Shown here piece by piece: positions 1 through 45,190 of a stretch of 64,000 nt of DNA. Each line of letters starts with the position of its first letter. The first letter of the stretch is position 1. Position numbers and translations under genes: made by a program. Below the pieces are notes generated by a model. That model had not been told where the DNA came from and searched no databases. It saw only the letters and a list, made by a program, of their open reading frames with translations. Where the stretch lies: contig CM035360.1 in the NCBI GenBank assembly GCA_020137815.1, forward strand, positions 7,254,001 through 7,318,000. Direction: 5' to 3'. Source of the stretch: Hormiphora californensis (taxonomy: Eukaryota; Animalia; Ctenophora).

Positions 1-381
1 CTGTGATACGTGATTCTCCACAACTAATCCTGATTAGCAATTTAGAACAGTCCAAGATTCGATGGGGATCACATGACCTGACTAACTGTCAGAAACATGA
101 TCACTGTGTGCCTTGTGCTTGCCCGTTTTTGATTTTCTTAGTCACATTTGAAAGAAATTCGATAGCCAAAGACAATTGTTTGAATTCTGGATCAAAAATT
201 CACGTTTTTTGGAATGACTGACGATGTTCATTCCCATCAAAAAAATGAATTTTGAGCTAAAAGTCTGAAATTTTGGTCAACCTATTTATTTCTCCCATAG
301 AGTAACTCTGCCAAATTTTGGCGCTCTACAATATCTGGAACCATGCTAGTCTAGGGCGGACATTTTTTATGCCCACCCCTG
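1..381. mobile_element. Right part of a TA-flanked (Tc1/mariner-type) MITE; complete copy at 12103-12974
   Basis: Ends in ggcggacattttttatgcccacccctg|TA, the inverted counterpart of TA|cagggggg-cataaaaaatgtccgcc at 12103. Absent from the orthologous intron at ~34190. Confidence 0.75.
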
Positions 382-393
382 TATTTCAGAGAA

Positions 394-956
394 CAAGAAT
401 TATTTGCATTATGTATACCCATAATGCTGTATTTCCCTGCACAACTTCAAGGATATAAACTTTGAGTGAAAGTTTGACAGCCGGCATGAGATCTGGATTG
501 TGCCACGCCTGCTTCTAAGTGGATGCTGATATGTGAGCCGGTAAAGCTGATGGGTTGACTAATTAGACTCCAGTTTCAAGGTTATGTGATATCATGTAGT
601 ATTCAAGTCGCAGTTCATGCCATTGCCACAACTCAAAAGTGAACATTGTACAGTACAATGACGTAGGGCGCGGCGCCAAAGTTATAGACTTTCTTTGAAG
701 TGAAACATAAACGTCCTGTGCGCGTGCGAGTTTCCTGCAGGAGAAGCGCCTAGTGACATCATATTTCATCAAAACAATTAATTGATTTGATGAAGGAGCG
801 TTGTCAAGCGTTGTCCGTGACGGACGGACGGACGGACACTTTTAGTTAACTACACAATCTGCTGATTTCTAAACCCTTTATGATCTTTTTAGCACGTGCG
901 TGCTAAAAACATCATCCCGGGTAAATGCCCTTCGGGCATTCACCCGGGCAGGGAAA
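394..956 (-). mobile_element. DINE-1/HINE-like non-autonomous Helentron
   Basis: Sub-terminal inverted repeat ttccctgc/gcagggaa, (GTCC)n microsatellite, terminal hairpin gcattatg-tatacc-cataatgc. Inserted in an A/T run without TSD. Empty site tttcagagaaaaatgc at ~34194. Confidence 0.7.
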
Positions 957-959
957 AAA

Positions 960-2723
<1,764 letters not shown>

Positions 2724-2875
2724 TGTAACTTGATAATATTTGATTTGATAATAATTAAGATTAGTTGTCATAAATGTGAACCCCTTTCCAAGAGTCAATC
2801 ATGTCGAGTTAGAAATACCATCACCGCTAGTGAGGGCAGTGAGTGATTGTGGTGAGTGTGAACTGTGGGCGTGTG

Positions 2876-3409
2876 CCCCCATAGAAATTTCACGCGGAGG
2901 AACCTGCATCCTCCAGCCTTTTCGTCACCCGAATGAAGGTGATTATCCAAGAAGAAACTAGCTAAAGTCCTGGAGAAAACAGGCATTAGTGCAGTCATTG
3001 TCTACTGCCGCGTTCCCCCTTTCAACTTTGTCTGGTGTATCTCAAAAAGTATTTAACTTACAGACTCCCAAAAAACGGGAGGTAACATGATATTGTAGAA
3101 AATATAATACTATCTGGGTTTTATTTAGATTAATGCACAGATACATAGCTATAGTTAGTGACACTTGGTGTCATAATTTTCTCCCATTGTTGTAGGTATT
3201 CACTTGACAGCTACCCCCTCTTTCTCTCCCATTCTCGCCCCTCTCCAGTCAGACAGTGTTGACAGGGGGAACGCGGCAGTAGACAATGACTGCACGAATG
3301 CCTGTTTTCTCCAGGACTTTAGCTAGTTTCTTCTTGGATAATCACCTTCATTCGGGTGACGAAAAGGCTGGAGGATGCAGGTTCCTCCGCGCGAAATTCC
3401 TATGGGGGT
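2876..3409. mobile_element. MITE-like element with ~150-bp inverted arms
   Basis: 2876-3025 is the reverse complement of ~3258-3409 (the same peptide MPVFSRTLASFFLDNHLH appears on both strands). Second copy at ~15400-15930. Confidence 0.65.
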
Positions 3410-3789
3410 GGGGATTGAACGTTGTTCCACTTCCACCCTTAGTTTTGAGGCTCCGCAATGTGCGCTTCAGCTTTTTCATGTAAAGACAATTTTGAATTTT
3501 GTAGAAAGAAGGAGTTGGGTGTTCAACCTTTGTTTCTCAATCAATTTCTTCAAACCAAAGTTTTACAAGCTTAGAATCGAATAGTATGCTCATTTAGGTG
3601 ATATGCGGTTTTTTGCCGTAGTTTCTATTGAGCACATGCAAAAGTGGGTGAGGGGTTGAAAAATGAACTTTAGAATTTTTTTGCCATGCTATGCAGTCTG
3701 TCGTTCGATCTCGCGTAAGCCGACAGACTGGGAACATGTCAAGTGTTTGGGGGGTGACAACCTGTCACAACTTTTCACCCCCAAAACTG

Positions 3790-4140
3790 ATTGGCAAACG
3801 TTGCTGGCCCCCGCAGCGCGGGATAAGGCAGCGCTTTTCAACAAAACTGACAACTTCAAAAATCCGACTTTAATTTTTTTTAAAAACATCCAGAAAATGT
3901 CCGCGCGTCGTCAAGGACTTGAAATTTGCGCCGCACATTTGAGTGAATCATGCGCCCCGGCTAAAATTTTTGCTTAAAACGCTGCAACAAGTGAGACGCG
4001 CAGTCATTTTACACTTGCAGCTTTTTATTTTAGATTTTGGGGCAAATTTCTTTTTTGATTTTTTGTGGCCCACGTTAAGATCTGGGCGTTTTGAGTGTCA
4101 GCACTCACGGTTTTTAGGGGTGGGGTTAGGGTTGGTGACG
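3790..4140. repeat. Interspersed repeat family (ttggcaaacgttgctggc.../...ggggttaggg)
   Basis: Homologous blocks at ~50452-50830 and ~51420-51520. Class not determined. Confidence 0.55.
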
Positions 4141-4240
4141 TAGACACCTGGTGCGACCCCCCGTACACAGGTGTCGGCTCTACCCCAAAAAGGGTCGTTT
4201 CTTTCAAAGAATGTTGCACGCGAGTCGCGATCCACTGGAC

Positions 4241-4281
4241 TTTCAAACTTTTCAACACTACTTTAAACAAATTAATTTGAG
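4241..4281 (+). other. Retroposed spliced-leader (SL) exon sequence
   Basis: TTTCAAACTTTTCAACACTACTTTAAACAAATTAATTTGAG matches my recollection of the Pleurobrachia/Hormiphora SL. It is followed by ATCGA-ATG rather than a GT donor, so it is not an SL RNA gene. Second copy at 16747-16786. Confidence 0.85.
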
Positions 4282-4286
4282 ATCGA

Positions 4287-5507
4287 ATGTATCAACAGCC
4301 CACGATGGGCAGTCCCATGTCTGACACAAGAGACGAGATGGCTGATCCACCTGATATCCAATGTGAGCTGGAGAAAGTTGAAGAAATGCTCACCCAAATG
4401 AACCTGTTTAGCCTACTACAAGATAACGGAGAAATGTCTGGAAACACCGAACGTTCGGTCAGTAGAAATGACTTGTGGAAGGTTATAAAGGTCGCCTATA
4501 GAGCGCTTTGGAACGAAGCTACCCAATGCAACAAACCAGCTCAGAATGATAATAACAGTGACGCTAATATCCTCGTCAAACTTGGAAAGCAACAAGACGA
4601 ACGGTTTATCCAATTCCGGGAAGAACTCCAGCTGACTATCAAAGAAACCATTCAGCAACTTCAACCATCTTATGCCCAACTTGCTATGTCTGGAAAACCT
4701 TCCACCCCCTCCATTCCTACAGTGCTCCCAGCTGCCATACCTCTTACTACCCCTCCAACAAAACCATCATACAGGAAAATCGTCGTTGACTGCAAAGAGG
4801 CTGATGTTGATGAAGTACACAGGCTCAGTGAGACTGCCCTATCAAAAACGAAAGTCTCTCGGTTGGTCAAGAAGAAAAATGCGGTTATCATTACTGTGCC
4901 CAGTACTGATGGTGATAAGGCAGCAGATGCCCTCAATAAGGACCTCTCTTCAACAACTGTCAGAGTTCGATCCGAACCCACTTGCAAGATAACAGTCCTC
5001 AACTTCCCTCTTACTGATTCCATGAGGCAAACTACTGATCGCTCGGTGAGGTGCCAGGAAATACTTGGTATGCTTAAGGAGAAAAATGAGCAACTGGACA
5101 ATGATAACATTGATGTGATATACTACAGGGTAAATGATCGAGTCCCTGATACATGTACAATTGGACTAAGGCTGCCTACTACAATCAAACGGCAGATACT
5201 GGGACAAGGAGTAGTCTATGTTGGTTATATGGCGTGTAGGGTGGTGGATCGTGTGCGGGTTAATCAGTGTTATAATTGTCAGGACTTCCACCACACGCAA
5301 GATGTGTGTAACAGACGTCCAGTGTGTACCCACTGTTCTCAAGAACATTCTTCTAAAGACTGTACGGCAAAATCTAACGAAAGTTTCATTCCTAAATGTA
5401 ATAACTGTTCTGTTGCGAAAAAGTCAGATGTTGCCCATGCTGCAAACAGTCGAGATTGTCCCTTGTATCTGTCTAAGTTCAATGAAGCTCGTTCAAAAAA
5501 CCAGTAG
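4287..5507 (+). CDS. LINE ORF1, gag-like nucleic-acid-binding protein (406 aa)
   Basis: Three C-terminal zinc knuckles: CYNCQDFHHTQDVC, CTHCSQEHSSKDC, CNNC...H....DCP. Confidence 0.9.
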   Translation: MYQQPTMGSPMSDTRDEMADPPDIQCELEKVEEMLTQMNLFSLLQDNGEMSGNTERSVSRNDLWKVIKVAYRALWNEATQCNKPAQNDNNSDANILVKLGKQQDERFIQFREELQLTIKETIQQLQPSYAQLAMSGKPSTPSIPTVLPAAIPLTTPPTKPSYRKIVVDCKEADVDEVHRLSETALSKTKVSRLVKKKNAVIITVPSTDGDKAADALNKDLSSTTVRVRSEPTCKITVLNFPLTDSMRQTTDRSVRCQEILGMLKEKNEQLDNDNIDVIYYRVNDRVPDTCTIGLRLPTTIKRQILGQGVVYVGYMACRVVDRVRVNQCYNCQDFHHTQDVCNRRPVCTHCSQEHSSKDCTAKSNESFIPKCNNCSVAKKSDVAHAANSRDCPLYLSKFNEARSKNQ

Positions 5508-8456
5508 GGTTAAAACTGGCCACTGTTAACTGTTTCTCGTTGCGTAACAAGTTGTTAGATGTTTTATTGAGTATTTCTGACAGTGATATTGATGCAGTGT
5601 GTTTAAGCGAGACGTGGTTACACTTAGATGAGAGTGCTATTGAGAGAGAGACTAGAGAGCATGGCTACAAGTTGGTCAGCAGGCCGCGTGGCTCTAGAGG
5701 AGGTGGTGTCGCCATCCTCATGAGGAAATCCTTCCACCATGTTCAGGTAAAGCACTCATTTTCATCATTCGAGTGTGTGGAAACTCTCATCACTCAAAAG
5801 AGTTCCAATCCTACAGCTCAGGGACCCAGGTTCCAACCCCTCCGTCTTCTTGGCATCTATCGCCCTCCATCCAGCCCTATTTCTACCTTCTTCGATGAAT
5901 TCGAATCGTTGCTCCATGACCTTTCGGAACGGCCTGGAGAGGTGGTTATTTCAGGTGATTTCAACATACATGTGCAAGATACCAGTTCCGGATCAACTAA
6001 AACCTTTCTCGGGCTTCTCGATGACCATCATTTTCGTCAATTTGTTTCGGAACCTACGCATATAGCGGGTGGTACACTGGATTTGGTCATTGCCAAGACC
6101 TTACCTGGTACTTCTCCTATCTCCAATATACATGTGGATATGATTCCTGCTGTACCTGATCATGCCCTGGTGTCATTCACCCTAGAAAATGGAGTTACAG
6201 CCCAACGGAAGAAGTTTGTCTCGGTTAAGAAAAGAGACATGAAATCACTGGATATTGAACAGCTAATATTCTCAATCCTACAGTCCCCTCTCTGTGACAT
6301 AGAAAACTTTCCCTCGGAGGTGGAGGAACTTATTGAACTGTATGATGAGATGTTGGCTGAGTTTCTCGATGAACTTGCCCCGGTCACTGAGATGATTGTC
6401 CCCGAAGATCCAGGCCCCAAGTGGTATAACACTGATTGTCAAGCTGCTAAACGTCGTAGGAGGAAAGCTGAACGACAGTATCTGGCCACGCTGTTGAAAT
6501 CTGTGTGTCCTGAAAAACTGTGGGACAGTCTCCGAACTAAACGTGACGAGGCTAAAGCAGCAACCAAGTTTATCGTTGGAGTTAGGAGTGGATATTATCG
6601 GGAGGAGCTTGATGAAGCCGATGGTGATATGCAGAAGTCTTACAGAATCATGAATGGTCTGCTGGGAAAGGATGGAAATTCATCAGTACTTCCTGAGTAC
6701 ACGGATCTTGACGAACTATGCCAGAGATTCATTGAATTCTTCCAAGAAAAAATCAACAAGATCTACACAGAAATTGAAGCAATGCGTGCTGACACCGAGG
6801 AAGTTTCTGGTCTTGAGGATGAAAATAGCCTGCCTAAGTTTGACTCTTTCAGACCTGTAACCAGTGATGAGCTGGTGAAGATCATTCGTTCAATGAATTA
6901 TAAAATCTGTGACCTCGATCCCATTCCTTCTAAGCTCGTTGGAACCTGTATACACGAGCTGATCCCCATCATTAAAGCAATTGTCAACGGTAGTCTGGTC
7001 AACGGAGTATTTCCTTCTGTCCTCAAGAAAGCAGTTATCCGGCCGGTGTACAAGGGGAAAGGGTTGGACAGCAACGATGTTGGAAGCTACAGGCCTATAT
7101 CTAACCTCAGCTTCATCTCTAAAATCATCGAAAAGTGTGTTTCTTTACAATTGACAGAACACCTGGAAGAACACGAGCTGTTTGCTACAGTGCAGTCTGC
7201 CTACAGAAAAAAAACACTCATGTGAAACGGCTACCCTGAAGATCTTTAATGATCTACTCGTGATGACTGACAAGAAAAGTAAGGCAGTACTCCTTCTACT
7301 CGATCTCTCTGCTGCCTTTGATACTGTTCCTCATACAATCCTTCTTCGTCGCCTGCAGCACATGTATGGTGTCAGTGGAACAGCTCTCAAATGGTTCTCT
7401 TCTTATCTCGAAGGAAGGAAAGCTGTTGTCAAAATAGGTGATTCCCAGTCTGCTGAAGTAAGTGTATACATTGGAGTGCCCCAGGGATCCATCTTGGGGC
7501 CCCTTATGTTTATTCTGTTCACGAAAGACCTCGAGAAAATTGCGGCCAAACATGGGATGAGGATTCACCTTTACGCAGACGACTCGCAGCTATATGTGAA
7601 GTTTACCAACAACAACTGGACACAAAATGAAGATCAGCTTCGACAATGTTTCTCAGAAATCGAGCAATGGATGGCATCGAGTTATTTGAAACTCAACCCC
7701 TCCAAAACAGAACTACTGTTTATATCATCGCGGACTGACAAAACTAAAAATCCCATCGCTCATGATGAGTCTTTCTCTCTGCGTAGATCTGATCAACCGG
7801 CAACGTACATCAGTCCCTCGGAACAGGCAAGGAATCTAGGAGTTATATTTGATGAAAGGCTCACCATGAAAGCCCATATCTCCAAGGTAGTCAGGGACTG
7901 CAACATGACCTTACACAACCTGAGGCGCATCGGCGACAAACTGTCAAAGAAAAACAAAGTCCAGCTGGTTCACTCCCTTATTCACTCTCGCATAGACTAC
8001 TGCAATGGCCTATTGATTGGAGCTGATAAGAGTGACATCACCCGCCTTCAAAAAGTGCAGAATGCAGCGACAAGATTCATCTTTGGAAGGTGGCAATGGA
8101 GAGGAGTAACAGAACTGAGAAAGCAGCTGCACTTTCTTCCTGTCACAGCGAGAATTGACTACAAGATCTGTCTTATGGTCTTCAAGTGCATCAACAATCT
8201 AGCACCACCCTACCTACAGAGTCTAATACAAAGGCGGAAACTAAAGTGCAAATCACTGAGACATGATGATGATCCAACACTTCTCCAAAAAGACTTCTCC
8301 ACTAAGTATAAGACTTCTCAGCGTGCTTTCCAGGTAGCAGGACCGAGACTGTGGAATGTCCTGCCTCAAACAATTCGAAGCTGCACAGATGAGTCACTCT
8401 TCAAATCGAAGCTGAAGACGCACCTCTTTGACAAGTCATACGGTCCTGCTGGCTGA
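5495..8456 (+). CDS. LINE ORF2, AP endonuclease + reverse transcriptase (one +1 A-run frameshift at ~7210)
   Basis: APE motifs LSETW, RGGGVAI, GDFN, TLDL, PDH. RT motifs YRPISNL, LDLSAAFD, GVPQGSILGP, YADD. The run is A8 here and in-frame A7 in the duplicate at ~19690. Confidence 0.9.
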
Positions 8457-10099
8457 TTTGTAGCTTTGTTAGTAGAGATCTGTCTAGTCATTGTCTGTCT
8501 TGTTTTACGTGTCTTGTTCTGTTCTGAGTTCCGAGTCTAGCCCCTTTTTATACTGAGTGCAGTGATTTTTTTTAATTTTTTTTTTAACATATATTTTTTA
8601 ACCAAGTAATCGTATAGCTTATCTACACCGTTATCTACTGAATTAACTATTAATCATTAATCTACTCTTTTTTATGATTGGAATTCTAATTCTTCTTTTA
8701 ATTATATCTATTTTAATTAACTTATTCATACAGTCCCTCAGTGTGTACCCACTTTTATCTATCTACTGTTTCTGTATGGACTGCCGCATAAGAAGGCTGG
8801 CTTAAGAGCTCTGGCGTTTTAATTATGAGTTTTTTCTCTCTGTTTTTTGCGTTTATCTCTTAGCTATATTGAGTCAATTTGCGGGGTATCAAATGTAACA
8901 ATTGAATTGAATTGAATTGGACCGATTTGCATCCGGTTTGTCGCAAAAGACTACAAATTGATCCTAATATACTGGAAAATACCCGAGAATTTTGTCTATC
9001 AACAGGAAGTGGGTCAACATTGACACTGAAGTAAAATCTATAATCTGACTTCGAGAGTTTCTGCACTACGCCCATGCGGTTTAGAAGATAATGGGAGACA
9101 TGTTGATGCAATTAGCATCAGAATTTGATGCTGGGTATTTTCCAGTACTCACAAGGCCTCAACCTATCTCCCAATATCGTCAGACTCAGTCTAAACCGCC
9201 TGGGAGTGGTGCAAAAACTCTCGGAAGCCGGATTATAGATATGACTTCAGTGTCAATTTTGACCCCCTTTCCTGTTGACAAACAAACTTCTCGGGCATTT
9301 TCCAGTAAACTAGGACCAATTTGTAGTCTCATGAAACAAGTGGGATGTAAATCGGTTCAGTGGATCACGTGCAAGATCTCTTGAAAGACACGACCCTTTT
9401 TTAGGGGGCGGAGCCGACACCTGTGTGTGGGGGGTCGCGCCAGGTGTCTATGGAGGCGAGACACTGTGTTGAGACGTGCACCATTGCGACGCGCATTGCG
9501 ACGCGCATTTTAGTAGTATAGTGTGCACAGTTGGGACCCCTTTTTCGCCCTAACTGAGGCACCATTTTGTATGTGCATGTCACGTGACTTCTAATTACCA
9601 AAATTATGCGGCGCTGGCAAGAGCTGTTCGCTAGAATATCGGGAGCGCCGGCAAGGGCCATGGAACAAGTTTGGCGCTGACAAGGGCCCTAATTTTTGTT
9701 TGAAATTTCTGCGTGTTAGTGATGTCACCCCTATCACATTACACGAATTGCACCAGGTGTTCTGTTATAACTCAGTATTCCGGTGACTTTTCACTGGAAA
9801 GGAACAAATACGTATTTTTAGGCAATTACCACCCGGAAAGGAATTTAGATTTACGGCTCATCCCATAATGGAATTAGATCTAATTAGTATCATCAACAGG
9901 GAAAAACAAGTCTCATTTGAGCGAGAGGACGTGTTGTACATTGTACACAATACGATTTTACAACAGCTGTGACATTGTCACATGTTGCACATGTCATGTA
10001 CGGAAGGCGCGGCACTTTCATTGAGAGGTTTTCTGCGCGGACCGCGAAATTCGAACTGAAGCAAGTACATGAGTACCTGTACATGTATACATGTACTGT

Positions 10100-13000
10100 A
10101 TCGGACCAGGGCGTTGTTTGTTCTGTCAAAAAACAGTCTAACTTGGCAAGGCGTTGTTTCAGTGATCCAGCAAATGAGGCACAATTGCAGAGCTAATAGC
10201 GGTAAAATATTGTTCTAACGTTTGCCAGTACCTGTCCAAGTCAACAAAGACTCCTGTATCGGATCACCCGGGCGTTTCCCTCTGATAACCTTTAACAGTC
10301 TCCAGAGACCAGAACTCCATATTCTGATCTTTCCGTCCTGGCAGGATGTAATACATCACATACAACTACTGCACAGATAGTACACACACTGAGGAGGGGT
10401 TGGGTGGATGTTTAATGGTTTCTGTATCAGGTTCAAATTGCTGTACAAAAATCATTGATGTCATCAATGGTTTGGAAAGTACCTGAAAATGTATACAGGG
10501 CAGTTTCGTGTACTTCTTCTCGACTAGTCGCCGCACCCTCTGCCCGCGCGCATTCACATGCTGCTTCATCAAGAACCGTTCGGCATGGCGCCCCGCTCCC
10601 AAACCCAGATTTACCCATCACCCCTAGCAACAAATCTCCATGTAACTCGACACTTCTGCCATTGGAAAACGGCCGTTACCTTGGTGAGGGAGGGTGAACA
10701 TTGCAGTGGTATCGAGAGAACAGCATGTTCCACACGTAAAGGACGTTTTGAGAGCCGTCATTATGTAGTGGGGGTTAGGAAACACAGTACACTTTGCCCA
10801 CCACTTGGTAAACCTAGTAAACAACAGGAACAGTTATAGTTGGACCCCGATTTACTGTGATGCTCGGATTTTGCCTGGTAAATCGGGGTATTGTAGTTCC
10901 TTAATTATTTCGGGAAGTTTAGCAATATCCGCCCGAAAAAATTGAGGTTTCGTTCAATTTGGGGCCTAGCCAGTAATTTGGGGTCGACTGTATTTGCAAT
11001 CACTGATTCCAGTCGACGAAGAGCCATTTTACCTGTAGTTTAGTGCCAGTATCAACGTCCCACAAGTGGAAAAACTTTGACTCAGTTCCTACACCCGCCC
11101 TGTTCCCTGAGAGAATCTTTTGTAAATTAGCAATTACAGTTGTATTATTGATTCACCATATTACTAGATTGGGTTTTAGTTGCTAGCATTGTAAAATCCC
11201 TAAAGTTTAACTGAGAGTAGGGTCTAGTATGATGAAGAGTACGCTTCAGAACACTCTTAGAGAGGTACCAAACTTTAACCATACAGTCCTGTGCCCCTGA
11301 TATCAGTAATCTGGGGTGAAGTAATGATAAATGGGGGGGGGGGGGGTTACACCATTACAACATACCAGTTTTCTACAGTTTACTGGACCCGTGTAGATAG
11401 ATGGGTTGCAATATGGTTCAGTACGTTTCATTGTGGTCTAGACAGGTTATAGTTCCCCTGTGGCCCCTCCATAGTCGCAGGTAGGCTCCAGTTTCTATCG
11501 ACCACCTCTAATTGTTGAATCATAGCTTCCTGTGGGAATGCAGCTGTTATGTAGGATGTTAATATGCAAAACACAGGAATTTACTCGAATAGAATGGGCA
11601 GGGGCTGAGTAGATTAGGAGTTCATAGCGTTTACCTGATATCACAATTTTGAATTTCTCTATTAGTAGTAATGATTTAATGCTTCCTGCATGACCAACTA
11701 TCGTCTTGTGAGTTTGGCCTGAAGCGATGTTATCAAGCTGAACATGAACATATATTTGTTTTACGAATTAGCACGGTTATATTCTCGTCAGGAACCGACC
11801 GAAACAAGTAAACAACCAATCAGAACTCGTTATTTTTCACGTGACTGGTTTCAGCCAATCAGCGACCAGTATTTCCTGATTCGGTCGGTTCCTGATTATC
11901 GTACCAGTTTCTGCATTCCTAATCTGCACCTTCCTATCCTTTGACCCGACAGCCACATATCTACCACACGACAATAGTGCAATGTCCGTGGGTGTCTGAG
12001 AACTTGAGAAGGTGCTGTTGGTGATACTGCCCACAAACACATTCCTCTCCTCCAGAATCACTTCACCTTTCTAGAATCCTCCTCGCTGGACAGAGCAGTT
12101 TACAGGGGGGCATAAAAAATGTCCGCCCTAGACTAGCATGGTTCCAGATATTGTAGAGCGCCAAAATTTGGCAGAGTTACTCTATGGGACAACTAAATAG
12201 GTTGACCAAAATTTCAGACTTTTAGCTCAAAGTTCATTTTTTTGATCGGAATGAACATTGTCATTCATTCCAAAAAACATGAATTTTTGATCCAAAAGTC
12301 AACAATTGTCTTTGGGCTATCGAATTTCTTTCAAATGCGACCAAGAAAATCAAAAACAGACACCACAAGGCACACAGTGATCATGTTTCTTGCAGTGAGT
12401 CAGGTCATGTGATCCTCACCGAATCGTGGACAACTTTCTGAATTGCTAATCAAGCTTATTGGGAAGTCACGTATCATAGCCGCTAATGAGGGATGTGTAT
12501 CGAAAAGCGACATGTGATTCGAAAGCACTGAGATAAAGAGACCACTTGTTAATGAGCCTCGGATCTCATGCCAATCATCTTCGTCATCCCACATTGGTGG
12601 CTGTGATACGTGATTCTCCACAACTAATCCTGATTAGCAATTTAGAACAGTCCAAGATCGATGGTGATCACATGACCTGACTAACTGTCAGAAACATGAT
12701 CACTGTGGTCCTTGTGCTTGCCCGTTTTGATTTTCTTAGTCACATTTGAAAGAAATTCGATAGCCAAAGACAATTGTTTGAATTCTGGATCAAAAATTCA
12801 CGTTTTTTGGAATGACTGACGATGTTCATTCCCATCAAAAAAATGAATTTTGAGCTAAAAGTCTGAATTTTGTCACTATTTATTTCTCCCATAGAGTAAC
12901 TCTGCCAAATTTTGGCGCTCTACAATATCTGGAACCATGCTAGTCTAGGGCGGACATTTTTATGCCCACCCCTGTATTTCAGAGAACAAGAATTATTTGC

Positions 13001-14298
13001 ATTATGTATACCTAATGCTGTATTTCCCTGCACAACTTCAAGGATATAAACTTTGAGTGAAAGTTTGACAGCCGGCATGAGATCTGGATTGTGCCACGCC
13101 TGCTTCTATGGATGCTGATATGTGAGCCGGTAAAGCTGATGGGTTGACTAATTAGACTCCAGTTTCAAGGTTATGTGATATCATGTAGTATTCAAGTCGC
13201 AGTTCATGCCATTGCCACAACTCAAAGTGAACATTGTACAGTACAATGACGTAGGGCGCGGCGCCAAAGTTATAGACTTTCTTTGAAGTGAAACATAAAC
13301 GTCCTGTGCGCGTGCGAGTTTCCTGCAGGAGAAGCGCCTAGTGACATCATATTTCATCAAAACATTAATTGATTGATGAAGGAGCGTTGTCAAGCGTTGC
13401 CGTGACGGACGGACGGACGGACACTTTTAGTTACTACACAATCTGCTGATTTCTAAACCCTTTATGATCTTTTTAGCACGTGCGTGCTAAAAACTCATCC
13501 CGGGTAAATGCCCTTCGGGCATTCACCCGGGCAGGGAAAAAATGCAAACTAATTAAAACAATAGTGATAACAGTAGCGTACGACAACTGTTTTCAAGGAG
13601 AATGTATTCAATATCCCTTATTGTTTCCTGGTATACCTGGTATAGGATGGTCAGTAGTACAGGGGTGTCCAGGGGGAAACGAGAGCTGCTTTGTTTGCAA
13701 AGGAGGGATTCACATTTCTAACTGCCGGCCTTAGAGCTCGACATCGGAACAAATGGGATTGAAACTGGTGTGCTCTCTTCGAAATTCTTTCACTACACGT
13801 ACCTAGGAAACTTTAATCATTGCCCTATTATAACAGTCTATAATGGGATCTTTATCACCCTTTCCCCGAGCATCCCGGTCCCAATATCAAAACATTTGAA
13901 TATTGTTCAGTTATGTACTACCATCGTTTTGACACCAGTCTAGCAGGCCGATGTTAGTTTGTCCCACAAGTTGAGAATCAGTTTGGCGACCGTAAACAGG
14001 TAGCTTGCTGATAAAATCCACACAGCCACTTCGCTCTGAGAAACATGGCCACTGCCCTGACCTGCAAACAACAACATACATCCATATTATATGGTCATGA
14101 AATATCAATGAACTTTTCTTCATTATATTTAATTTGGTATTCTCACCAAGGGCAATGTGTCGGATCCGGTTTAATTCCTCCTCAGTCTCAAGGTTACCTG
14201 CAACACGGGGTTGTCATAGTAACGCACACACGCTTCAAAATAAGGGATGAATTGAGAGAGACCGAGAGAGAATAAGAGCGAGAGAGAGAGAGAGAGGA

Positions 14299-14337
<39 letters not shown>

Positions 14338-15250
14338 GAGAGAAGGAGAGAGAGGAGAAGAAGAGATACAAGGGGGGAGCTGGATAGGTGATGAAGCTAT
14401 ATCCATAATGTAATTTGGGATCATCCCTGGCGATGTTATTGCAGCAACTCATGCAATTTAGATCATGCATCATTCTAGATAGAAGGTACAAACAACATAT
14501 CTACAAACAATTGCGATGAGAAAATAGCCACGTGCAAAAACCAATTGTTTTGAAATATTTTCACACAATGAAAACACTCACGGTGAGCTGATAGATATTC
14601 TGACAGCTCTAAAATGTAGCTGCATTTACATAAGACAGGCCACGGAGAAGAAATGTTATTTTCTGCGTCCTTGCCTAAAGGTTGGGCATGAAATAAAACT
14701 GTTTGTTTTGTTCAAACCCTTTTTTTTTTCAAAAAGAGGTGCAGTGAGATAGGGTCGAGCAAGCTGCAATATAATACCAATGTAGGTACTGTGTGCTCAT
14801 TACATGTGTAGTTATCAACAAAATGTAATACACTGATTTTCAGCCCATTGTTGTATCAAATAAAGTTTGTGAGATCCCTGGTCGATATTCTGGTGAACTG
14901 ATTCTTTTCTCTCATATCGATTTGATTGTCTGTTTATAACGGAACCTGGATGAAGTGTGATACCAATCAACTTGTTAATCGCAATACACCCCCTCCATGA
15001 ACTTAGTAGTGCAGTTGGATCTATCACTGCCTCTCAATCTTAACTCATCTAATTATAGCTACCTGCCAACTGTCAACTAGATTTGTAACGTCTTGTACTT
15101 ACAGAAATATGCTTGTCTTGGTCATCTAACTTTCAAAAAGACGAATGAAGAATTCCGATGTCGATTGATCTGGTAGATAAGGTATCAGCTTGGCAAGTTT
15201 CCAAGGTTAAGCCTAATTTCACACGAGTTGCAGTCGTCTCCAGTCGCCAT
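10100..15250 (-). CDS. F-box/WD40 protein (FBXW10/CDRT1-like), copy 2; indel-rich sequence, 3' end approximate
   Basis: ATG 15250. F-box exon ~13920-14030. EERNVF motif ~12050. WD repeats GHAGSIKSLLL, GSYDSTIR and LISGAQDCMVKVW at ~11260-11720, in the order I recall for FBXW10. Confidence 0.65.
10836..10991. mobile_element. Short TA-flanked MITE related to the 58111 element (also ~32912-33066)
   Basis: ggaccccgatttac ... aatttggggtcgactg termini. Confidence 0.55.
11789..11894. mobile_element. hAT-type MITE (~108 bp)
   Basis: TIR caggaaccgaccgaa/ttcggtcggttcctg. 8-bp TSD attctcgt with one mismatch here and perfect at the 33874 copy. Confidence 0.8.
12103..12974. mobile_element. Tc1/mariner-type MITE with ~300-bp imperfect TIRs and TA TSD
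   Basis: TA|cagggggg...cccctg|TA. Absent in gene copy 3. Confidence 0.8.
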
Positions 15251-18200
15251 TGTAACTTGATAATATTTGATTTGATAATAATTAAGATTAGTTGTTCATA
15301 AATGTGAACCCCTTTCCAGAGTCAATCATGTCGAGTTAGAAATACCATCACGCTAGTGAGGGCGTGAGTGATTGTGGGAGATGTGAACTGTGGGCGTGTG
15401 CCCCCTAGAAATTTCACGCGGAGGAACCTGCATCCTCCAGCCTTTTCGTCACCCGAATGAAGGTGATTATCCAAGAAGAAACTAGCTAAAGTCCTGGAGA
15501 AACAAGGCATTAGTGCAGTCATTGTCTACTGCCCGCGTTCCCCCTTTCAACTTTGTCTGGTGTATCTCAAAAAGTATTTAACTTACAGACTCCCAAAAAC
15601 GGGAGGTAACATGATATTGTAGAAAATATAATACTATCTGGGTTTTTTATTAGATATGCACAGATACATAGCTATAGTTAGTGACACTTGGTGTCATAAT
15701 TTTCTCCCATTGTTGTAGGTATTCACTTGACAGCTACCCCCTCTTTCTCTCCCATTCTCGCCCCTCTCCAGTCAGACATGTTGACAGGGGGAACGCGGCA
15801 GTAGACAATGACTGCACGAATGCCTGTTTTCTCCAGGACTTTAGCTAGTTCTTCTGGATAATCACCTTCATTCGGGTGACGAAAAGGCTGGAGGATGCAG
15901 GTTCCTCCGCGCGAAATTCCTATGGGGGTGGGGATTGAACGTTGTTCCACTTCCACCCTTAGTTTTGAGGCTCCCAATGTGCGCTTCAGCTTTTTCATGT
16001 AAAGACAATTTTGAATTTTGAGAAGAAGGAGTTGGGTGTTCAACCTTTGTTTCTCAATCATTTCTTCAAACCAAAGTTTTACAAGCTTAGAATCGAATAG
16101 TATGCTCATTTAGGTGATATGCGGTTTTTTGCCGTAGTTTCTATTGAGCACTGCAAAAGTGGTGAGGGTTGAAAAATAACTTTAAATTTTTTTGCCATGC
16201 TATGCAGTCTGTCGTTCGATCTCGCGTAAGCCGACAGACTGGGAACATGTCAAGTGTTTGGGGGGTGACAACCTGTCACAACTTTCCACCCCAAAACTGA
16301 TTGGCAAACGTTGCTGGCCCCCGCAGCGCGGGATAAGGCAGCGCTTTTCAACAAAACTGACAACTTCAAAAATCCGACTTTAATTTTTTTTAAAAAACAT
16401 CCAGAAAATGTCCGCGCGTCGTCAAGGACTTGAAATTTGCGCCGCACATTTGAGTGAATCATGCGCCCCGGCTAAAATTTTTGCTTAAAACGCTGCAACA
16501 AGTGAACGCGCAGTCATTTTACACTTGCAGCTTTTTATTTTAGATTTTGGGGCAAATTTCTTTTTTGATTTTTGTGGCCCACGTTAAGATCTGGGCGTTT
16601 TAGTGTCAGCACTCACGGTTTTTAGGGGTGGGGTAGGGTTGGTGACGTAGACACCTGGTGCGACCCCCCGTACACAGGTGTCGGCTCTACCCCAAAAGGG
16701 TCGTTTCTTTCAAAGAATGTTGCACGCGAGTCGCGATCCACTGGACTTTCAAACTTTTCAACACTACTTAAACAAATTAATTTGAGATCGAATGTATCAA
16801 CAGCCCACGATGGGCAGTCCCATGTCTGACACAAGAGACGAGATGGCTGATCCACCTGATATCCAATGTGAGCTGGAGAAAGTTGAAGAAATGCTCACCC
16901 AAATGAACCTGTTTGCCTACTACAAGATAACGGAGAAATGTCTGGAAACACCGAACGTTCGGTCAGTAGAAATGACTTGTGGAAGGTTATAAAAGGTCGC
17001 CTATGAGCGCTTTGGAACGAAGCTACCCAATGCAACAAACCAGCTCAGAATGTAATAACAGTGACGCTATACCCTCGTCAAACTTGGAAAGCAACAAGAC
17101 GAACGGTTTATCCAATTCCGGGAAGAACTCCAGCTGACTATCAAAGAACCACTTCAGCAACTTCAACCATCTTATGCCCAACTTGCTATGTCTGGAAAAC
17201 CTCCACCCCCTCCATTCCTACAGTGCTCCCAGCTGCCATACCTCTTACTACCCCTCCAACAAAACCATCATACAGGAAAATCGTCGTTGACTGCAAAGAG
17301 CTGATGTTGATGAAGTACACAGGCTCAGTGAGACTGCCCTATCAAAAACGAAAGTCTCTCGGGGGTCAGAGAAAAAATGCGGTTATCATTACTGTGCCCA
17401 GTACTGATGGTGATAAGGCACAGATGCCCTCAATAAGGACCTCTCTTCAACAACTGTCAAGTTCGATCCGAACCCACTTGCAAGATAACAGTCCTCAACT
17501 TCCCTCTTACTGATTCCATGAGGCAAACTACTGATCGCTCGGTGAGGTGCCAGGAAATACTTGGTATGCTTAAGGAGAAAAATGAGCAACTGGACAATGA
17601 TAACATTGATGTGATATACTACAGGGTAAATGATCGAGTCCCTGATACATGTACAATTGGACTAAGCTGCCTACTACAATCAAACGGCAGATACTGGGAC
17701 AAGGAGTAGTCTTGTTGGTTATATGGCGTGTAGGGTGGTGGATCGTGTGCGGGTTTAACAGTGTTATAATTGTCAGGACTTCCACCACACGCAAGATGTG
17801 TGTAACAGACGTCAGTGTGTACCCACTGTTCCAAGAACATTCTTCTAAAGACTGTACGGCAAAATCTAACGAAAGTTTCATTCCTAAATGTAATAACTGT
17901 TCTGTTGCGAAAAAGTCAGATGTTGCCCATGCTGCAAACAGTCGAGATTGTCCCTTGTATCTGTCTAAGTTCAATGAAGCTCGTTCAAAAAACCAGTAGG
18001 GTTAAAACTGGCCACTGTTACTGTTTCTCGTTGCGTAACAAGTTGTTAGATGTTTTATTGAGTATTTCTGACAGTGATATTATGCAGTGTGTGTTAAGCG
18101 AGACGTGGTTACACTTAGATGAGAGTGCTATTGAGAGAGAGACTAGAGAGCATGGCTACAGTTGGTCAGCAGCCGCGTGGCTCTAGAGGAGGTGGTGTCG

Positions 18201-19781
18201 CCATCCTCATGAGGAAATCCTTCCACCATGTTCAGGTAAAGCACTCATTTTCATCATTCGAGTGTGTGGAAACTCTCATCACTCAAAGAGTTCCAATCCT
18301 ACAGCTCAGGGACCCAGGTTCCAACCCCTCCGTCTTCTTGGCATCTATCGCCCTCCATCCAGCCCTATTTCTACCTTCTTCGATGAATTCGAATCGTTGC
18401 TCCATGACCTTTCGGAACGGCCTGGAGAGGTGGTTATTTCAGGTGATTTCAACATACATGTGCAAGATACCAGTTCCGGATCAACTAAACCTTTCTCGGG
18501 CTCTCGTGACCATCATTTTCGTCAATTTGTTTCGGAACCTACGCATATAGCGGGTGGTAAACTGGATTTGGTCATTGCCAAGACCTTACCTGGTATTTCT
18601 CCATCTCCAATATACATGTGGATATGATTCCTGCTGTACCTGATCATGCCCTGGTGTCATTCACCCTAGAAAATGGAGTTACAGCCCAACGGAAGAAGTT
18701 TGTCTCGGTTGAAAAGAGACATAAAAATCACTGGATATTGAACAGCTAATTATCCAATCCTACAGTCCCCTCTCTGTGACATAGAAACTTCCCTCGGAGG
18801 TGGAGGAACTTATTGAACTGTATGATGAGATGTTGGCTGAGTTTCTCGATGAACTTGCCCCGGTCACTGAGATGATTTCCCCGAAGATCCAGGCCCCAAG
18901 TGGTATAAACACTGATTGTCAAGCTGCTAAACGTCGTAGGAGGAAAGCTGAACGACAGTATCTGGCCACGCTGTTGAAATCTGTGTGTCCTAACCTGTGG
19001 GACGTCTCCGAACTAAACGTGACGAGGCTAAAGCAGCAACCAAGTTTATCGTTGGAGTTAGGAGTGGATATTATCGGGAGGAGCTTGATGAAGCCGATGG
19101 TGATATGCAAGAGGTCTTACAGAATCATGAATGGTCTGCTGGGAAAGGTGGAAATTCATCAGTACTTCCTGAGTACACGGATCTTGACGAACTATGCCAG
19201 AGATTCATTGAATTCTTCCAAGAAAAAATCAACAAGATCTACACAGAAATTGAAGCAATGCGTGCTGACACCGAGGAAGTTTTCTGGTCCTTGAGGATGA
19301 AAATAGCCTGCCTAAGTTTGACTCTTTCAGACCTGTAACCAGTGTGAGCTGGTGAAGATCATTCGTTCAATGAATTATAAAATCTGGTGACCTCGATCCC
19401 ATTCCTTCTAAGCTCGTTGGAACCTGTATACACGAGCTGATCCCCATCATTAAAGCATTGTCAACGGTAGTCTGGTCAACGGAGTATTTCCTTCTGTCCT
19501 CAAGAAAGCAGTTTATCCGGCCGGTGTACAAGGGGAAAGGGTTGGACAGCAACGATGTTGGAAGCTACAGGCCTATATCTAACCTCAGCTTCATCTCTAA
19601 AATCATCATCGAAAAGTGTGTTTCTTTACAATTGACAGAACACCTGGAAGAACACGAGCTGTTTGCTACAGTGCAGTCTGCCTACAGAAAAAAACACTCA
19701 TGTGAAACGGCTACCCTGAATCTTTAATGATCTACTCGTGATGACTGACAAGAAAAGTAAGGCAGTACTCCTTCTACTCGC
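12601..19781 (+). repeat. Indel-rich duplicate of window positions 1-~7300, including a 3'-cut copy of the LINE at 16747-19781
   Basis: Starts with the same ctgtgatacgtgattctcc. Differences are mostly single-base deletions and insertions that break every ORF. Confidence 0.92.
12987..13539 (-). mobile_element. HINE-like element, duplicate copy
   Basis: Same sequence as 394-956. Confidence 0.7.
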
Positions 19782-20505
19782 TCTCTATTTTATTTCCAAA
19801 TTAAAATAAAGATAACATTTCTACGAGGCAGAGAAGATTTTCTGTCAGGCACTGTCTAAATGTCTAACCACCACCATAATTAGATATCTGTCAGCCCGGT
19901 CAGGTGGACTAGAAAGTGGGAAGTAACAACGTAACTATTGATATACTTTGTAGAGTACAGAGTTGGGCAAATTTGGCGTACAAGATATACTTATAGGTAC
20001 CAAATATTATGTGTACCATAGCAACATATGGGTGGCGGGTGCCATAGCAACATATTTGATATGTTTAGAGGGAGTCAACAGTCATTGAATGAGATCTGAT
20101 CAGGATTCATAATGAACGTGTGAGAGAGAGCCAGGGAATCTTGTTCCAGTTCTAAAGTCCCTTTAGTAGGACTTACCCCTAGATATCTCTCACAGCAGTA
20201 GTCCCAGGTTACTGGCAGGAAGTTTAAACTTGTCACAGAACTTGTGGTGTTAATCAGCAACCTGAATCACGGGGTGTAGTTTAGGTGAAATCGGGAGAAC
20301 ACGAAATAAGACGATATCTTTACAAGGAAGGGCAGGTCGGTAGAACTTCGACAGAATTTAGGGCAGGTCAATTTAGGGCAGGTCAATTTAGGGCAGGTCT
20401 GAATTTAGGGCAGGTAAATTTAGGGCAGGTAAATTTAGGGCAGGTCTGAATTTAGGGCAGGTCAATTTAGGGCAGGTCTGAATTTAGGGCAGGTCTGAGT
20501 ACTAA

Positions 20506-22900
20506 AAAATATAGATAGTACTGTAGCTAAAGAGGAATACGAACTCAAAGAACATCAATACAGAACACTAGCAATAGAGAAAGAAACATCCTTTCTCGAG
20601 CTTTCCTCTATAGATGAACTTACACCCAATGCTAATGTATCAAAGAAATTTTTCAAACACGTTAAGTCCAAAACGAATAGCACTAGAATTCCTGAGAGAG
20701 TATACCTTAATAATAAATTTAGCTCTTCGAGTCGTCGTAAATGTGAAATGTTCAATGAATTTTTCTGTAATCAATTCACTGAATCTAGTACCTACAAAGA
20801 AACTGTTGATATTGATAGAGATCACACTAATGATTTTAACTCTGAGATATTTAGATTTGATGAGATTCAAAAGATTCTAAAAAAGTTGGATGCGTCAAAA
20901 GCAACAGGTCCAGATAATATTGACGGTGTTGTGCTTAAGAAATGTCATAAATCCCTAGCTTATCCACTCACCCTTATATTTAATAAATCATACTCAGAGG
21001 GATGTATACCAACAGAATGGAAAACCGCGAACGTTGTCCCAGTTTACAAGAAAGGGGAACGATCATGCGTTGAGAATTATAGGCCTATATCCCTGACTTG
21101 CCTTGTTATGAAAGTTTTTGAGAAATTAGTAAGAGAACGCCTATATAAAGCCTGTCTAGAAAAAATAACTCCCTACCAGCATGGTTTTGTACCCTTGAAA
21201 TCATGTACGTCACAACTGATTGAGTTTAATTGTGAATTAGCGTTGAACATAAATAACCGGAATCAAACTGATATAGTTTACTTTGACTTTCAGAAAGCAT
21301 TTGATAGTGTATCTCATGATGTAATAATAAATAAGCTGAAAAATGAGTTTAATTTAGGAGGTAAGATGTTGCGTTTCCTAATGAATTATTTATCTGGTAG
21401 GCAACAGAGGGTTGTGTTAGATGGGGATTTTTCAGAATGGGTAGAGGTTAGGAGTGGAGTTCCACAAGGATCAATACTAGGTCCTTTCTTGTTTGTGTTA
21501 TTCATAAATGATATTGTTAATGTTTTAAGAGAAGACGATCTAACTAAAATTAGGCTATATGCAGATGATCTGAAAATTTGGCGGGTTATAAATAGTGAAG
21601 AAGATAGTTTGCAGCCCGACATCGATAGTTTAGTGGAATGGGCAAAGGATAATAAAATGATATTCCATCCTAAAAAGTGTAAGCTGCTTAGGTGTACTAA
21701 AATTATTAAACAACGTCAACTAAATTATCACCTAGGCAGAGATGAAATCAAATTATGTGAAAATGAAGTTGATCTAGGAGTCTCAACTAATCACAAGTTG
21801 TCGCCAATCGAACACCAGAAAAATGTTGTTTCCAAAGCTTCTCAAAGATTAGGACTGGTGAAGCGTGTAGGCGTATTAGTTAAATGTCCCCTTAAAAAGA
21901 AGAACCTCTACATTAGTCTAGTTAGATCTTTGTTCGAACACTGTAGCCAAATATGGCGTCCACAAAGTGAGTCAAGTCTGCTTAAGTTTGAACGACTCCA
22001 GAAACGTGCCACAAAATGGATATTCGGTGAAACAGATACCAGTTATAGTTTAGATACGTATATAAAGAAACTCAGGGAGATTGACGTACTCCCAATGACT
22101 CAAAATTTCAATATAATGATCTTAAATTGTTCCATAAAATATTCTATGAGACGTCTCCTATAAAACTTCCATCTTTCCTACAAAAATACAATCCGGAATT
22201 ACATGACAGACGTGCCACCAGACAACAAACAAACCGAGACAGTACGGACATTATATGTACCGAACAACCCAGAGTAGACCTGTTCAAAAACTGTTACTTT
22301 TACCGCTGCCACCTTGAGTGGAACTTACTTCCTAAAGAACTGAGAAATACAGCTGAACACCATTTATTTTCCTCTAGACTGAAAGACCATCTCTGGAAAG
22401 CCTTACACGACATAACTTAATTCGCTGCTGTGGTGTGGGCCCCTTTCTCTTCTTTTATCTTTACAGTAACTGTCCTTCTTCCTCACATATCTTTCATTCT
22501 TACATTGTACTCAAATTGAAGGTTTGGAGTGGTGTTGAACAGTTTGAAACAAGATGGTGGACCCGCACCACAGATGTGAATTATAACTGATCTACCCAAC
22601 AGTCGACATATTGACGTTAAATTCGGGGTATGGTTCATGGGGGAGGGAGGTAGGGGACTGGGAATCAAGGGTAAGTATTAAGTATAATTGTTATTATTAA
22701 TGAGTGAAATAAATTTAGATTACAACTAGTATAAGAGTGTGTTTTAGCCTTATAGCTACTTTTTTTAAATATTTTTAAATGAGTTTTTTAAGACGTAAGC
22801 ACTCGCGCCATAGGCTGCTAAACTATTAGTAAGAGTCAGTCGGGTATTTATTTAATGTGCAATTTGTACGTTTATATAATATCTATTTCAAATCAAATCA
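20506..22900 (+). mobile_element. 5'-truncated LINE (CR1/Jockey-like RT) with (AAATC)n tail
   Basis: Interrupts the host arm between actaa and gcatgtgaatg. Tail ttcaaatcaaatca. Confidence 0.88.
20748..22420 (+). pseudogene. Reverse transcriptase ORF2 fragment (frameshift at ~22130)
   Basis: KATGPD, NYRPISL, YFDFQKAFD, GVPQGSILGP, LYADD, WNLLP. No endonuclease domain. Confidence 0.88.
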
Positions 22901-39308: not shown

Positions 39309-40885
39309 ATGTTTGTAATGTTCACACTGTGTGCGTGTGACTAGAAAGTGTTTAATTTTTCACATACCACTGCAGCGGTATTTTACTTTATAATTACTAG
39401 TGTTTTTGCAGTGGTCTAAAATTTCACAGTACACTTTAACCACCGGAAACGGTGTACTGTGAAAACTTAGATAACCGGTTAAAATTGTCTAATAAATTAG
39501 TAGTTAATAAGTTAGTTAAAAACACGCATACACACATACTTCACTTCACACTTATGTCTTATTTCGCAATTTAAACCTCTGATTAAATAACATGGCACAG
39601 TTTGTAATTGTCTATGAAACGGGATCAGTTCATATACATTTCGTCACAGTTTTGGGCCACCCATTCATGACTCCTTTGCACATCCACTATCCCTAGCCTC
39701 CCTAGTCGCCACTAAATAATGCTAGCGTGTCCCCCGTACTTTCAACTGTACCCAGGATGATGCTTGATCTCGGACTACTAGGAAACTCAAGACTTGAGGA
39801 AACTTCAATGACCTAATTACTGAAAAAGGGGAGAGAAACGGCCCGCTTGCGGGTGTTTAGGTTACGTGTTAGTGGACAGTTTACTGTCTAGTATAACTAA
39901 TATCTCTAGACACTACTAAAGGGGGTCGAGGATTGAAACTACATATTAATTACTTGCCCTACTCAATCCTCTGTCTAAGGGTTCAGCTCATGATATTGTC
40001 ACGATAAGCCCATCCTATCGTCCTTAACACCTGAAAATATTTTGCACCGGAGGTGGTGATTTAATTGTCAGTCGGAACCTCCGTATGCAGGCTGGCTCTG
40101 TGTATTGGAAAGTATAGTACTTGACAATACACAGCGCCATACCATGGTGTGGGTCGTTTATTGTTCATATCGAGTGTTACTCTACTGTCATTGTCAAAGT
40201 AAGTCTGCAGGGAGGGGGAGGGTGGGCTTTTTTTTCTTTTCTTTTTTTTTTTTTTCCTTTTTTTTTCTTCTTTCTTTTTATTGCCTCTTTTTTTTTTTTT
40301 TTTTTTTTTTTGATTTTTTAGCCCAGGCTCTTTTTTTACCGAGTTCTGGGGATCCGTCACATAAAAAGAAACCAATCAATCAACTCGAGTCTCCAAGTCT
40401 CCACTTTCTAGAACAATACGGAAAGTATTCAACTGGCCACCAGACACACAAACAACCTCCTCTATATCTCCTGACTCCCTACTCCCTAGTCCCTAATAAC
40501 TCTAAAAATTCAACGAATTCCTTTTATCACAATAGTACAACTCCTCACACATCAACTCCGGGAACAACTCGAAAACCCTTAGACCAGTACGATACTGACT
40601 CACACATCAACTCCAAACTAACATCAGAAAAACTCCCTACACACACATACAACAAGCTGGGATTCCTTTACTAAATTGTCTTCTGAAAACATTACACACA
40701 CCGACAAACTCTTACGACAACAGACTTTAATCACTCTCCATTATAAGCCCTCTGGAAAAGATGAGTCTTGAGGAGCACCTTGAAGCGGTCTTCTGAAGTT
40801 TCCTCCCTTAATTGTCTTGGTAGTTCATTCCACAGCTGGGGTCCAGCTATCGAGAGTCTTCTTTCAAAGTAATACAAGGTTTTTA

Positions 40886-40929
40886 ATTGTTTACTAATAG
40901 TTTCATGCTTTCGCAATCGTCAGAACAAT
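40886..40929 (-). ncRNA. Minimal type I hammerhead ribozyme
   Basis: Reverse complement of the 45191 motif. Confidence 0.85.
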
Positions 40930-40973
40930 GCTTGCAAATTTTAAAACGTTCAACTTCCTCTTCGACTCCTTCA

Positions 40974-43150: not shown

Positions 43151-43281
43151 GTTTGCCTTGAAAAGTGCTCAACTGTGGGATTCCACTGGAGCTTGTATCT
43201 TTGCTTATAAAGGGATTGCTGGTAAAGCGCTCGACAGGATCAAGATTCTGGAGCTGATTACAAAGTAATACAAGGTTTTTA

Positions 43282-43325
43282 ATTGTTTACTAATAGTTTC
43301 ATGCTTTCGCAATCGTCAGAACAAT
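43282..43325 (-). ncRNA. Minimal type I hammerhead ribozyme
   Basis: Reverse complement of the 45191 motif. Confidence 0.85.
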
Positions 43326-43747
43326 GCTTGCAAATTTTAAAACGTTCAACTTCCTCTTCGACTCCTTCATCAAACCGTTTGTTGAAGTGATGCCAGGTGT
43401 CCTCTCCGGTGGGGACATTTGTTAAGAAGCTCCCCTTTCTTGTTAATTAGTCCTTTCCTCGTTAATATTGCGAACTTTTCAGCCAGGCATAGAGAGCAGG
43501 TGATGTTGCCTGGGCGGTATGGTGGAGCTTTGGCGATGATCATTCAAAACCAGGTTCAATGGTCACATGGCGACAATAAGACACGACAAACACAGGACAG
43601 CGACAGAACTCTCCAAACTAGTTTGGAGCCTCCGTGACAGACAGATAACGTATGACATAACATGGCAGATCATCGCCAAAGCTCCACCATACCGCCCAGG
43701 CAACATCACCTGCTCTCTATGCCTGGCTGAAAAGTTCGCAATATTAA

Positions 43748-45050: not shown

Positions 45051-45190
45051 TTAACGAGGAAAGGACTAATTAACAAGAAAGGGGAGCTTCTTAACAAATG
45101 TCCCCACCGGAGAGGACACCTGGCATCACTTCAACAAACGGTTTGATGAAGGAGTCGAAGAGGAAGTTGAACGTTTTAAAATTTGCAAGC

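Follow-up and report, generated by a model that had tools for sequence, protein, structure and literature searches.

Non-LTR retrotransposons have to regenerate the exact 5′ end of each new copy, and the means described for this are internal promoters and self-cleaving ribozymes. Some of these elements lie directly against a spliced-leader (SL) exon, such as SLACS and CZAR, two elements that target SL genes. The NeSL and CRE elements, found in the same position, have a restriction-like endonuclease and SL genes as their insertion sites (PMC4640811; this and all further articles named by PMC number are cited from those portions of their text that were available). Genomic leaders without an SL intron beside retroelements have been described in flatworms, where 597 leader loci near LTR and LINE elements were read as integrated trans-spliced transcripts (PMC12582326), with six such loci in Schistosoma mansoni (PMC5832876). 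The flatworm leaders are partial and the loci were regarded as ones to discard; the available text of these articles does not describe element anatomy, junction variants, splice acceptors or a cycle. Retroposition of SL-capped mRNA is likewise known from dinoflagellates, in which retrogenes are re-transcribed and trans-spliced again at the AG of the old leader (PMC12014239, citing Slamovits and Keeling 2008); these are host genes, the acceptor is near the 5′ end of the leader, and tandem relic leaders are left behind. In Hydra, about 30% of the Iso-Seq reads of transposable elements (TEs) carry an SL, so that TE RNAs use the host machinery; this concerns the RNA level, and genomic SL-headed copies are not reported in the available part of that article (PMC12220107).

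The ctenophore Hormiphora californensis has a 44-nt leader that is present on 56% of its Iso-Seq reads, and genomic leader copies number 718 in this species and 491 in Mnemiopsis, left unclassified in the available text (PMC8527503). In the full-text literature, outside which most subscription journals lie, we found neither ctenophore families of SL-headed LINEs nor a self-renewing cycle of such elements, and the accessible portions of PMC7986045, PMC12460157, PMC4558846 and PMC4176376 contain nothing on such a cycle. Here, we analyze a LINE headed by a leader in a 64,000-nt stretch of the H. californensis genome (the window), for which a preliminary description had proposed a promoter-less element that depends on trans-splicing.

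Results

The LINE occupies positions 4241–8917 of the window (4.7 kb, two ORFs), sits in an inverted-repeat element and is headed by 41 nt on the plus strand (4241–4281) that end in AAATTAATTTGAG, with TTTGAG as the last letters. The preliminary description had taken this 41-mer for the cydippid ctenophore SL exon minus its first few bases, and comparison bears this out: it is identical at 41/41 positions to the published 44-nt leader, of which the first 3 nt are absent (PMC8527503), and again at 41/41 positions to the exon of an SL RNA gene in a metagenome contig (locus L068). The same leader occurs in several datasets. A spacer of 5 nt (ATCGA, 4282–4286, plus strand) separates it from the ORF1 start codon at 4287. 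Neither the SL intron nor SL-gene upstream sequence has a match within the window, no Rfam family matches it, leader included, and the leader pattern occurs in it only twice, the second time in a duplicated segment.

The element is bracketed by the target-site duplication TGGAC, at 4236–4240 on the left and at 8918–8922, behind the (AATTG)n tail, on the right (both plus strand); because the TG of the right copy fits the tail too, the duplication is 3–5 bp long. The empty site was recovered in 10 contigs of sequencing run X5, with one TGGAC and without the leader, and hence the leader came in with the insertion. The target itself is a non-coding inverted repeat, multi-copy in three DNA runs, with its left part at 4141–4235 and its right part, recognized by arm complementarity, at 8923–9450 (no strand assigned to either; 4141–4223 and 9365–9450 are 84% complementary). 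This agrees with the MITE named in the preliminary description, MITE-like being a label that we infer.

Could the LINE instead target genomic SL sequences, as NeSL, CRE and SLACS do, or could a template switch have joined it to SL RNA? Genomic SL copies run into the hundreds (718; PMC8527503) and contigs show many flanks, which would fit such a preference. We regard it as highly improbable, as the empty site has no leader, the duplication encloses the leader, SL intron or SL-gene upstream sequence occurs at no head, the endonuclease is apurinic-type and not restriction-like, and the junctions coincide with the exon end instead of the SL RNA end. SL-targeted insertion is largely refuted by the empty-site contigs. 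The window LINE was thus rightly set apart from NeSL, SLACS and CRE at the outset: its target is unrelated to SL RNA genes and the leader lies within the insertion.

ORF1 (4287–5507, plus strand) encodes a gag-like protein of 406 aa with C-terminal Cys/His knuckles. It has no match in Pfam, its Cys/His columns are invariant across nine relatives, and its atlas look-alikes carry zf-CCHC and PRE_C2HC. Homologs of ORF1 (P0001–P0003) and of the RT were retrieved as proteins with neither flanking DNA nor a named clade. ORF2 (5486–8456, plus strand) encodes an apurinic-type endonuclease (APE) and a reverse transcriptase (RT; PF03372, PF14529, PF00078); it is read in the −1 frame relative to ORF1, and no ATG precedes its endonuclease. 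In the window copy, ORF2 is broken by a frameshift in the A-run at 7207–7214 (8 A, compared with 7 in the duplicate), which may be a sequencing error. The 3′ UTR (8457–8917, plus strand) ends in the (AATTG)n tail from 8900, and a single fold of the last 105 nt of the LINE, computed with a view to the 3′ stem-loop of the CR1 group, gave −13.5 kcal/mol. An ORF2 with APE and RT, a target-site duplication, a 3′ repeat tail and the absence of LTRs characterize an APE-type non-LTR retrotransposon, and from its motifs the LINE is a putative member of the CR1 group (L2/CR1). The CR1 group, including ZfL2-1, shares the APE and RT ORF2 (PMC13343379) and a short-repeat tail, and the target duplication of 3–5 bp coincides with the peak of duplication lengths for L2 and CR1 (PMC4245944). 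The window LINE differs from this group in that its ORF1 is gag-like, not esterase-type, and its 5′ end is host-derived.

ORF2 overlaps ORF1 in the −1 frame at all seven junctions examined (the window and the metagenomic LINEs L020, L029, L032, L049, L063 and L066), six of which have a homologous ORF1, and five of the seven elements have no ATG ahead of the first endonuclease motif. Each overlap contains an in-frame slippery-type heptamer (7/7), compared with 2 in the 2783 remaining ORF1 codons; it reads A AAA AAC in the window (5495–5501, plus strand), A AAA AAC or A AAA AAT among the relatives, and T TTT TTC in L063. Downstream of the heptamers, no stimulatory fold above background was found (z −0.4 to 0.7). 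From its sequence, the heptamer is a candidate for programmed −1 frameshifting, which would yield an ORF1–ORF2 fusion. Among non-LTR elements, the available text of a frameshift review names HeT-A and TART only (PMC5009743).

The second leader of the window, at about 16747–16786, belongs to a 97% duplicate (12601–19786, plus strand; 46 mismatches, 164 gap letters) of positions 1–7308 that comprises flank, leader and LINE up to the start of the RT. Given the same flanks and the 97% identity, we rejected this copy as an independent insertion. The gaps are mostly single bases missing from the duplicate, which stops abruptly inside ORF2 and is likely uncollapsed noisy assembly sequence. With a noisy duplicate and a homopolymer frameshift in the window, the leader–LINE join itself might be suspected to be an assembly chimera of an SL repeat and a LINE, yet we assign this a practically negligible probability, considering that such joins are present in two independent DNA samples as well as in further assemblies and that the target site is duplicated around the insertion. 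Elsewhere in the window, a large near-perfect palindrome (40862–47715) has 2.6-kb arms that are 99.8% alike and an inner inverted repeat; it is either a fold-back element or an assembly artefact. LINE fragments at 47638–50397 (minus strand) and 20676–22130 (plus strand) are 39–50% and 26–29% identical to the window ORF2, respectively; both start within ORF2, and no leader was found at either.

To follow the LINE family in other samples, positions 4100–4900 were compared with four of 19 sequencing runs (X4, X5, X8 and X19), runs with small shares being left aside; all data are assembled contigs, which lose rare variants, and counts from this comparison are those among the matches listed. X4 yielded one 675-nt contig (depth 221) that spans 4280–4900 with 5 differences. 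It starts with 11 unaligned letters, the last six of the leader plus five more bases, and reaches only 6 nt into the leader. X5, a separate sample from a separate study, yielded a 274-nt contig (depth 1258) spanning 4262–4528 with one difference and a 7-letter gap; this contig is continuous from 20 nt inside the leader, and in that sample there is no branch to non-SL upstream sequence at the junction. In the main form of the family, the leader is followed by 7 bases, the last two of which are AG, and then by the spacer and the ATG, the gap letters of X5 presumably being the same seven. The window copy, 99% like this main form, lacks exactly those 7 bases, from exon end to AG, in both of its versions. 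A second trans-splice acceptor would be a simple explanation for two junctions in one family, and a chance deletion with exactly those two ends appears unlikely. In this sole re-splicing event visible, the AG used lies beyond the leader and is not that at the leader's end.

At the level of contigs, as distinct from a census of copies, the main 5′ contig starts in the SL in two other DNA samples. Among the matches listed, each of three DNA runs has 23–24 contigs with unrelated sequence upstream of the leader, and, again among the matches listed, 27–31 contigs with unrelated sequence downstream, whose consensus start is not GT. In X19, which bears the same species label and is guessed to be RNA, the leader is covered and ORF1 of the family is not. 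Organism B (run X8) has a relative about 88% alike, whose contigs, among the matches listed, stop at 4309, short of the 5′ end.

Further SL-headed loci were chosen in metagenome contigs by an exact 25-nt leader pattern, with which lineages whose leader has drifted or is missing cannot show up. The search returned 107 matches in 106 loci, 27 of them with only 300 nt of flank: 12 loci (8 firm, 4 probable) hold LINEs or LINE-like elements, one holds an array of SL genes, and the remaining 93 are of other kinds. Three of the SL-headed LINEs have ORF1 and a full endonuclease–RT ORF2 (L029, L032, L049), three have ORF1 and the start of the endonuclease (L020, L063, L066), and two share the UTR of L020/L032 (L098, L105). 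The LINE-like loci L096, L054, L009 and L101 are less firm, and L009 is rated probable, its atlas scores all being under 0.9. In the 93 others, the leader lies at or near the contig end, 72 have a host-type Pfam family and LINE domains are absent, suggesting that they are mostly host mRNAs. Two source assemblies are free of host mRNA and seem to represent DNA; they contribute 11 loci, of which 10 are LINEs or LINE-like and one is L068, which carries tandem SL RNA genes (692–825 and 1470–1603, 778-nt spacing) with exon, GTAAG donor and three stem-loops (fold z −4.2). Unlike in dinoflagellates, host retrocopies number 0 among the 10 loci of these assemblies that are not SL genes.

The SL-headed LINEs are diverse: their ORF2s are 29–39% identical to that of the window element and their ORF1s belong to at least three unrelated types. 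Their upstream flanks (n = 11, three of them shorter than 20 nt) are unrelated among themselves and to the SL gene, and no SL intron or SL-gene upstream sequence was found near any LINE head, which extends to these loci the absence of an SL intron stated for the window in the preliminary description. Counting the window, 12 heads have upstream sequence; nine of these retain 40–43 of the 44 leader bases and the rest 38, 35 and 28, and nearly all copies are without the first 1–4 leader bases. The check proposed at the outset, whether full-length copies start in the SL at unrelated flanks, gave a positive answer at the contig level, from the main contigs of two samples and 11 unrelated flanks. 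A one-off retroposition of a trans-spliced transcript, named beforehand as the outcome that would overturn the idea, is contradicted by the finding that in two samples the main contig of the family begins in the SL and that distant lineages do so too. We consider it confirmed that the SL head is real, family-wide and common to distant LINE lineages.

Viral contigs contained 0 matches to the leader pattern, and an ORF1 alignment search found nothing in them. Against prokaryote assemblies, the ORF1 alignment retrieved three unrelated LINEs (L107–L109), none with this leader. All three have two ORFs and are of eukaryote type, and their contigs are assigned to bacterial MAGs, for which binning contamination is the likely reason. 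Two other SL-headed contigs deserve mention. In L073, an ORF at 211–1470 has no Pfam match; it resembles, as we presume, a Polinton/Maverick-type protein, and the contig is possibly a trans-spliced transcript of a DNA transposon or of virus-like origin. L004 carries two G-protein alpha ORFs in tandem on the same strand, 2.7 kb apart, and is either a dicistronic RNA or an assembly chimera.

The sequence behind the leader varies considerably. The relatives have 35–215 nt from the SL to the first long-ORF ATG, compared with 5 nt in the window, a gap that is ordinary in itself, since 25 of 90 host mRNAs have ≤5 nt there (median 14). Two parts of the preliminary description find no support here. 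For the family, the SL is not the whole 5′ UTR, as the main form has 7 more bases and the relatives have longer spacers still; nor is room for a promoter lacking, given these spacers and a conserved motif, GCCC-N4/5-GGGCAG, located 17–31 nt behind the leader (4298–4312, plus strand, in the window). The motif is found near the leader in 4 of the 106 loci (L009, L054, L096, L101), all LINE-like and with ORF1s unrelated to that of the window, and has two matches within the window compared with 0.06 expected; in L063 it is degenerate. An upstream ORF of 1–4 codons ends just ahead of the motif in these four loci and in L063. Its stop is absent in the window lineage, and the first codons of ORF1 may accordingly be the motif element read through. 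The motif is possibly an RNA hairpin or a promoter element. Splice acceptors are also retained: of the 12 LINE-like loci, 3 have TTTYAG immediately after the leader, compared with 0 of 93 others (Fisher p 0.001), and TTTTAG stands one base ahead of the ORF1 ATG in 5/5 members of one lineage whose UTRs are 65–94% alike.

Since the junctions coincide with the exon end, the leaders are nearly complete and a target-site duplication brackets the insertion, we conclude that reverse transcription very probably took as its template a trans-spliced RNA bearing the SL and ran nearly to the 5′ end of that RNA. The mature SL-capped mRNA template of the preliminary description is upheld by the same joins and leaders.

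Whether leader-headed copies serve again as templates, gaining a fresh leader in each round, is a separate matter, which we judge slightly better than even. Renewal is favored by the continuous X5 contig, by a second junction in a copy 99% alike, and by a leader that stays identical while the UTR drifts. In L020, L032, L105 and L029, the 15–16 leader bases that the search pattern does not cover show no difference, and the UTRs behind them are 65–83% alike; an identical leader could also reflect selection on leader function. Four copies that are 78–94% alike, from two assemblies, keep one junction. In L063, flank, leader and LINE are in one piece in an assembly otherwise composed of mRNA-like contigs, and this contig may stem from a read-through precursor or from DNA carry-over. 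No tandem of a new and a relic leader was found among the 106 loci, though most contigs start inside the leader; splicing at the leader's terminal AG would leave no relic leader.

Two other histories could underlie these leaders. Master elements with a promoter and an outron might make trans-spliced RNAs, in which case SL-headed copies would mostly be a dead-end first generation, comparable to processed pseudogenes with an SL tag, and the two junctions would be tandem acceptors of the master. This reading needs no GAG acceptor to account for either junction or for the exact current leader, it is the one implied for the flatworm loci (PMC12582326, PMC5832876), and host mRNAs, too, have a YAG in the first 7 nt more often (25/93) than in later 7-nt windows (13–19). 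As contigs drop rare forms, a rare master copy with an outron could have escaped. We nevertheless hold it to be unlikely, if far from negligible: the X5 contig passes the junction unbroken, and the four copies that are 78–94% alike with one junction would call for several persisting masters, renewed by unspliced RNA. Alternatively, an SL may have been captured once per lineage and inherited in the 5′ UTR, with transcription beginning at the leader from an internal promoter, located in the leader or in the motif or spacer that follows, and with downstream trans-splicing giving a translated side product that is sometimes retroposed, the window copy being one such case. The retained acceptors, T-rich spacers of 145–163 nt and the conserved motif behind the leader would suit such an inheritance, as would the basal promoter proposed within the dinoflagellate SL (PMC12014239). 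We find it improbable, because the UTR drifts and the leader does not, lineages with unrelated ORF1s and 30–39% ORF2 identity having one leader in common, and because nearly all copies have lost the first 1–4 leader bases, a loss that would be hard to make good for an end passed on by inheritance.

A cycle of renewal would start with transcription of a genomic SL-headed copy, either reading in from the flank or driven by an element that lies within the leader or immediately follows it. The spliceosome would then add a new SL at the AG that ends the old leader, rebuilding the main form, or would join it at an AG a few bases downstream, giving the window copy. Trans-splicing would in this manner set and repair the 5′ end, from which reverse transcription trims 1–4 bases. 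The retained TTTYAG acceptor between leader and ORF1 may recruit the spliceosome and would yield an ORF1 mRNA with a short UTR. Exon 3 of Drosophila Sxl offers a parallel, in that the spliceosome is recruited by the downstream acceptor and joining takes place at the first AG; speculatively, a strong downstream acceptor in the LINE would recruit the spliceosome, with joining at the first AG, and the kept acceptors would then be compatible with renewal. Renewal is weighed down by the GAG end of the leader, GAG being a weak splice acceptor next to CAG or TAG. The frameshifted ORF2 of the window copy counts against it as well, as does run X19, in which the leader appears and ORF1 does not. If the downstream acceptors were the usual choice, their quick loss would be expected, yet most lineages keep them, which also counts against renewal. 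Applied to ctenophore LINEs as a class, the full proposal holds that they are promoterless, transcribed by read-through and recapped in each round at the AG of the retroposed leader, with TTTYAG recruiting the spliceosome, and that such heads account for most of the hundreds of genomic SL copies outside SL genes; to this we give tentative credence, with doubt prevailing.

Discussion

The window LINE has the features of an SL-tagged retrocopy: a leader at its 5′ end, a join at the exon end and a flank unrelated to SL genes. In contrast to the flatworm loci, the ctenophore leaders are near-complete and head full-length two-ORF LINEs of several lineages. Should renewal hold true, host trans-splicing would be a third way to regenerate the 5′ end of a non-LTR element, seen across LINE lineages whose ORF2s are about 30% identical, in an early-branching animal. 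The two junctions in one family would be the trace of recent re-splicing. SL heads would further offer an explanation for genomic leader copies, 718 and 491 in the two ctenophores (PMC8527503), not all of which would then be SL genes, and a leader head would serve as a simple marker of full-length, young LINEs.
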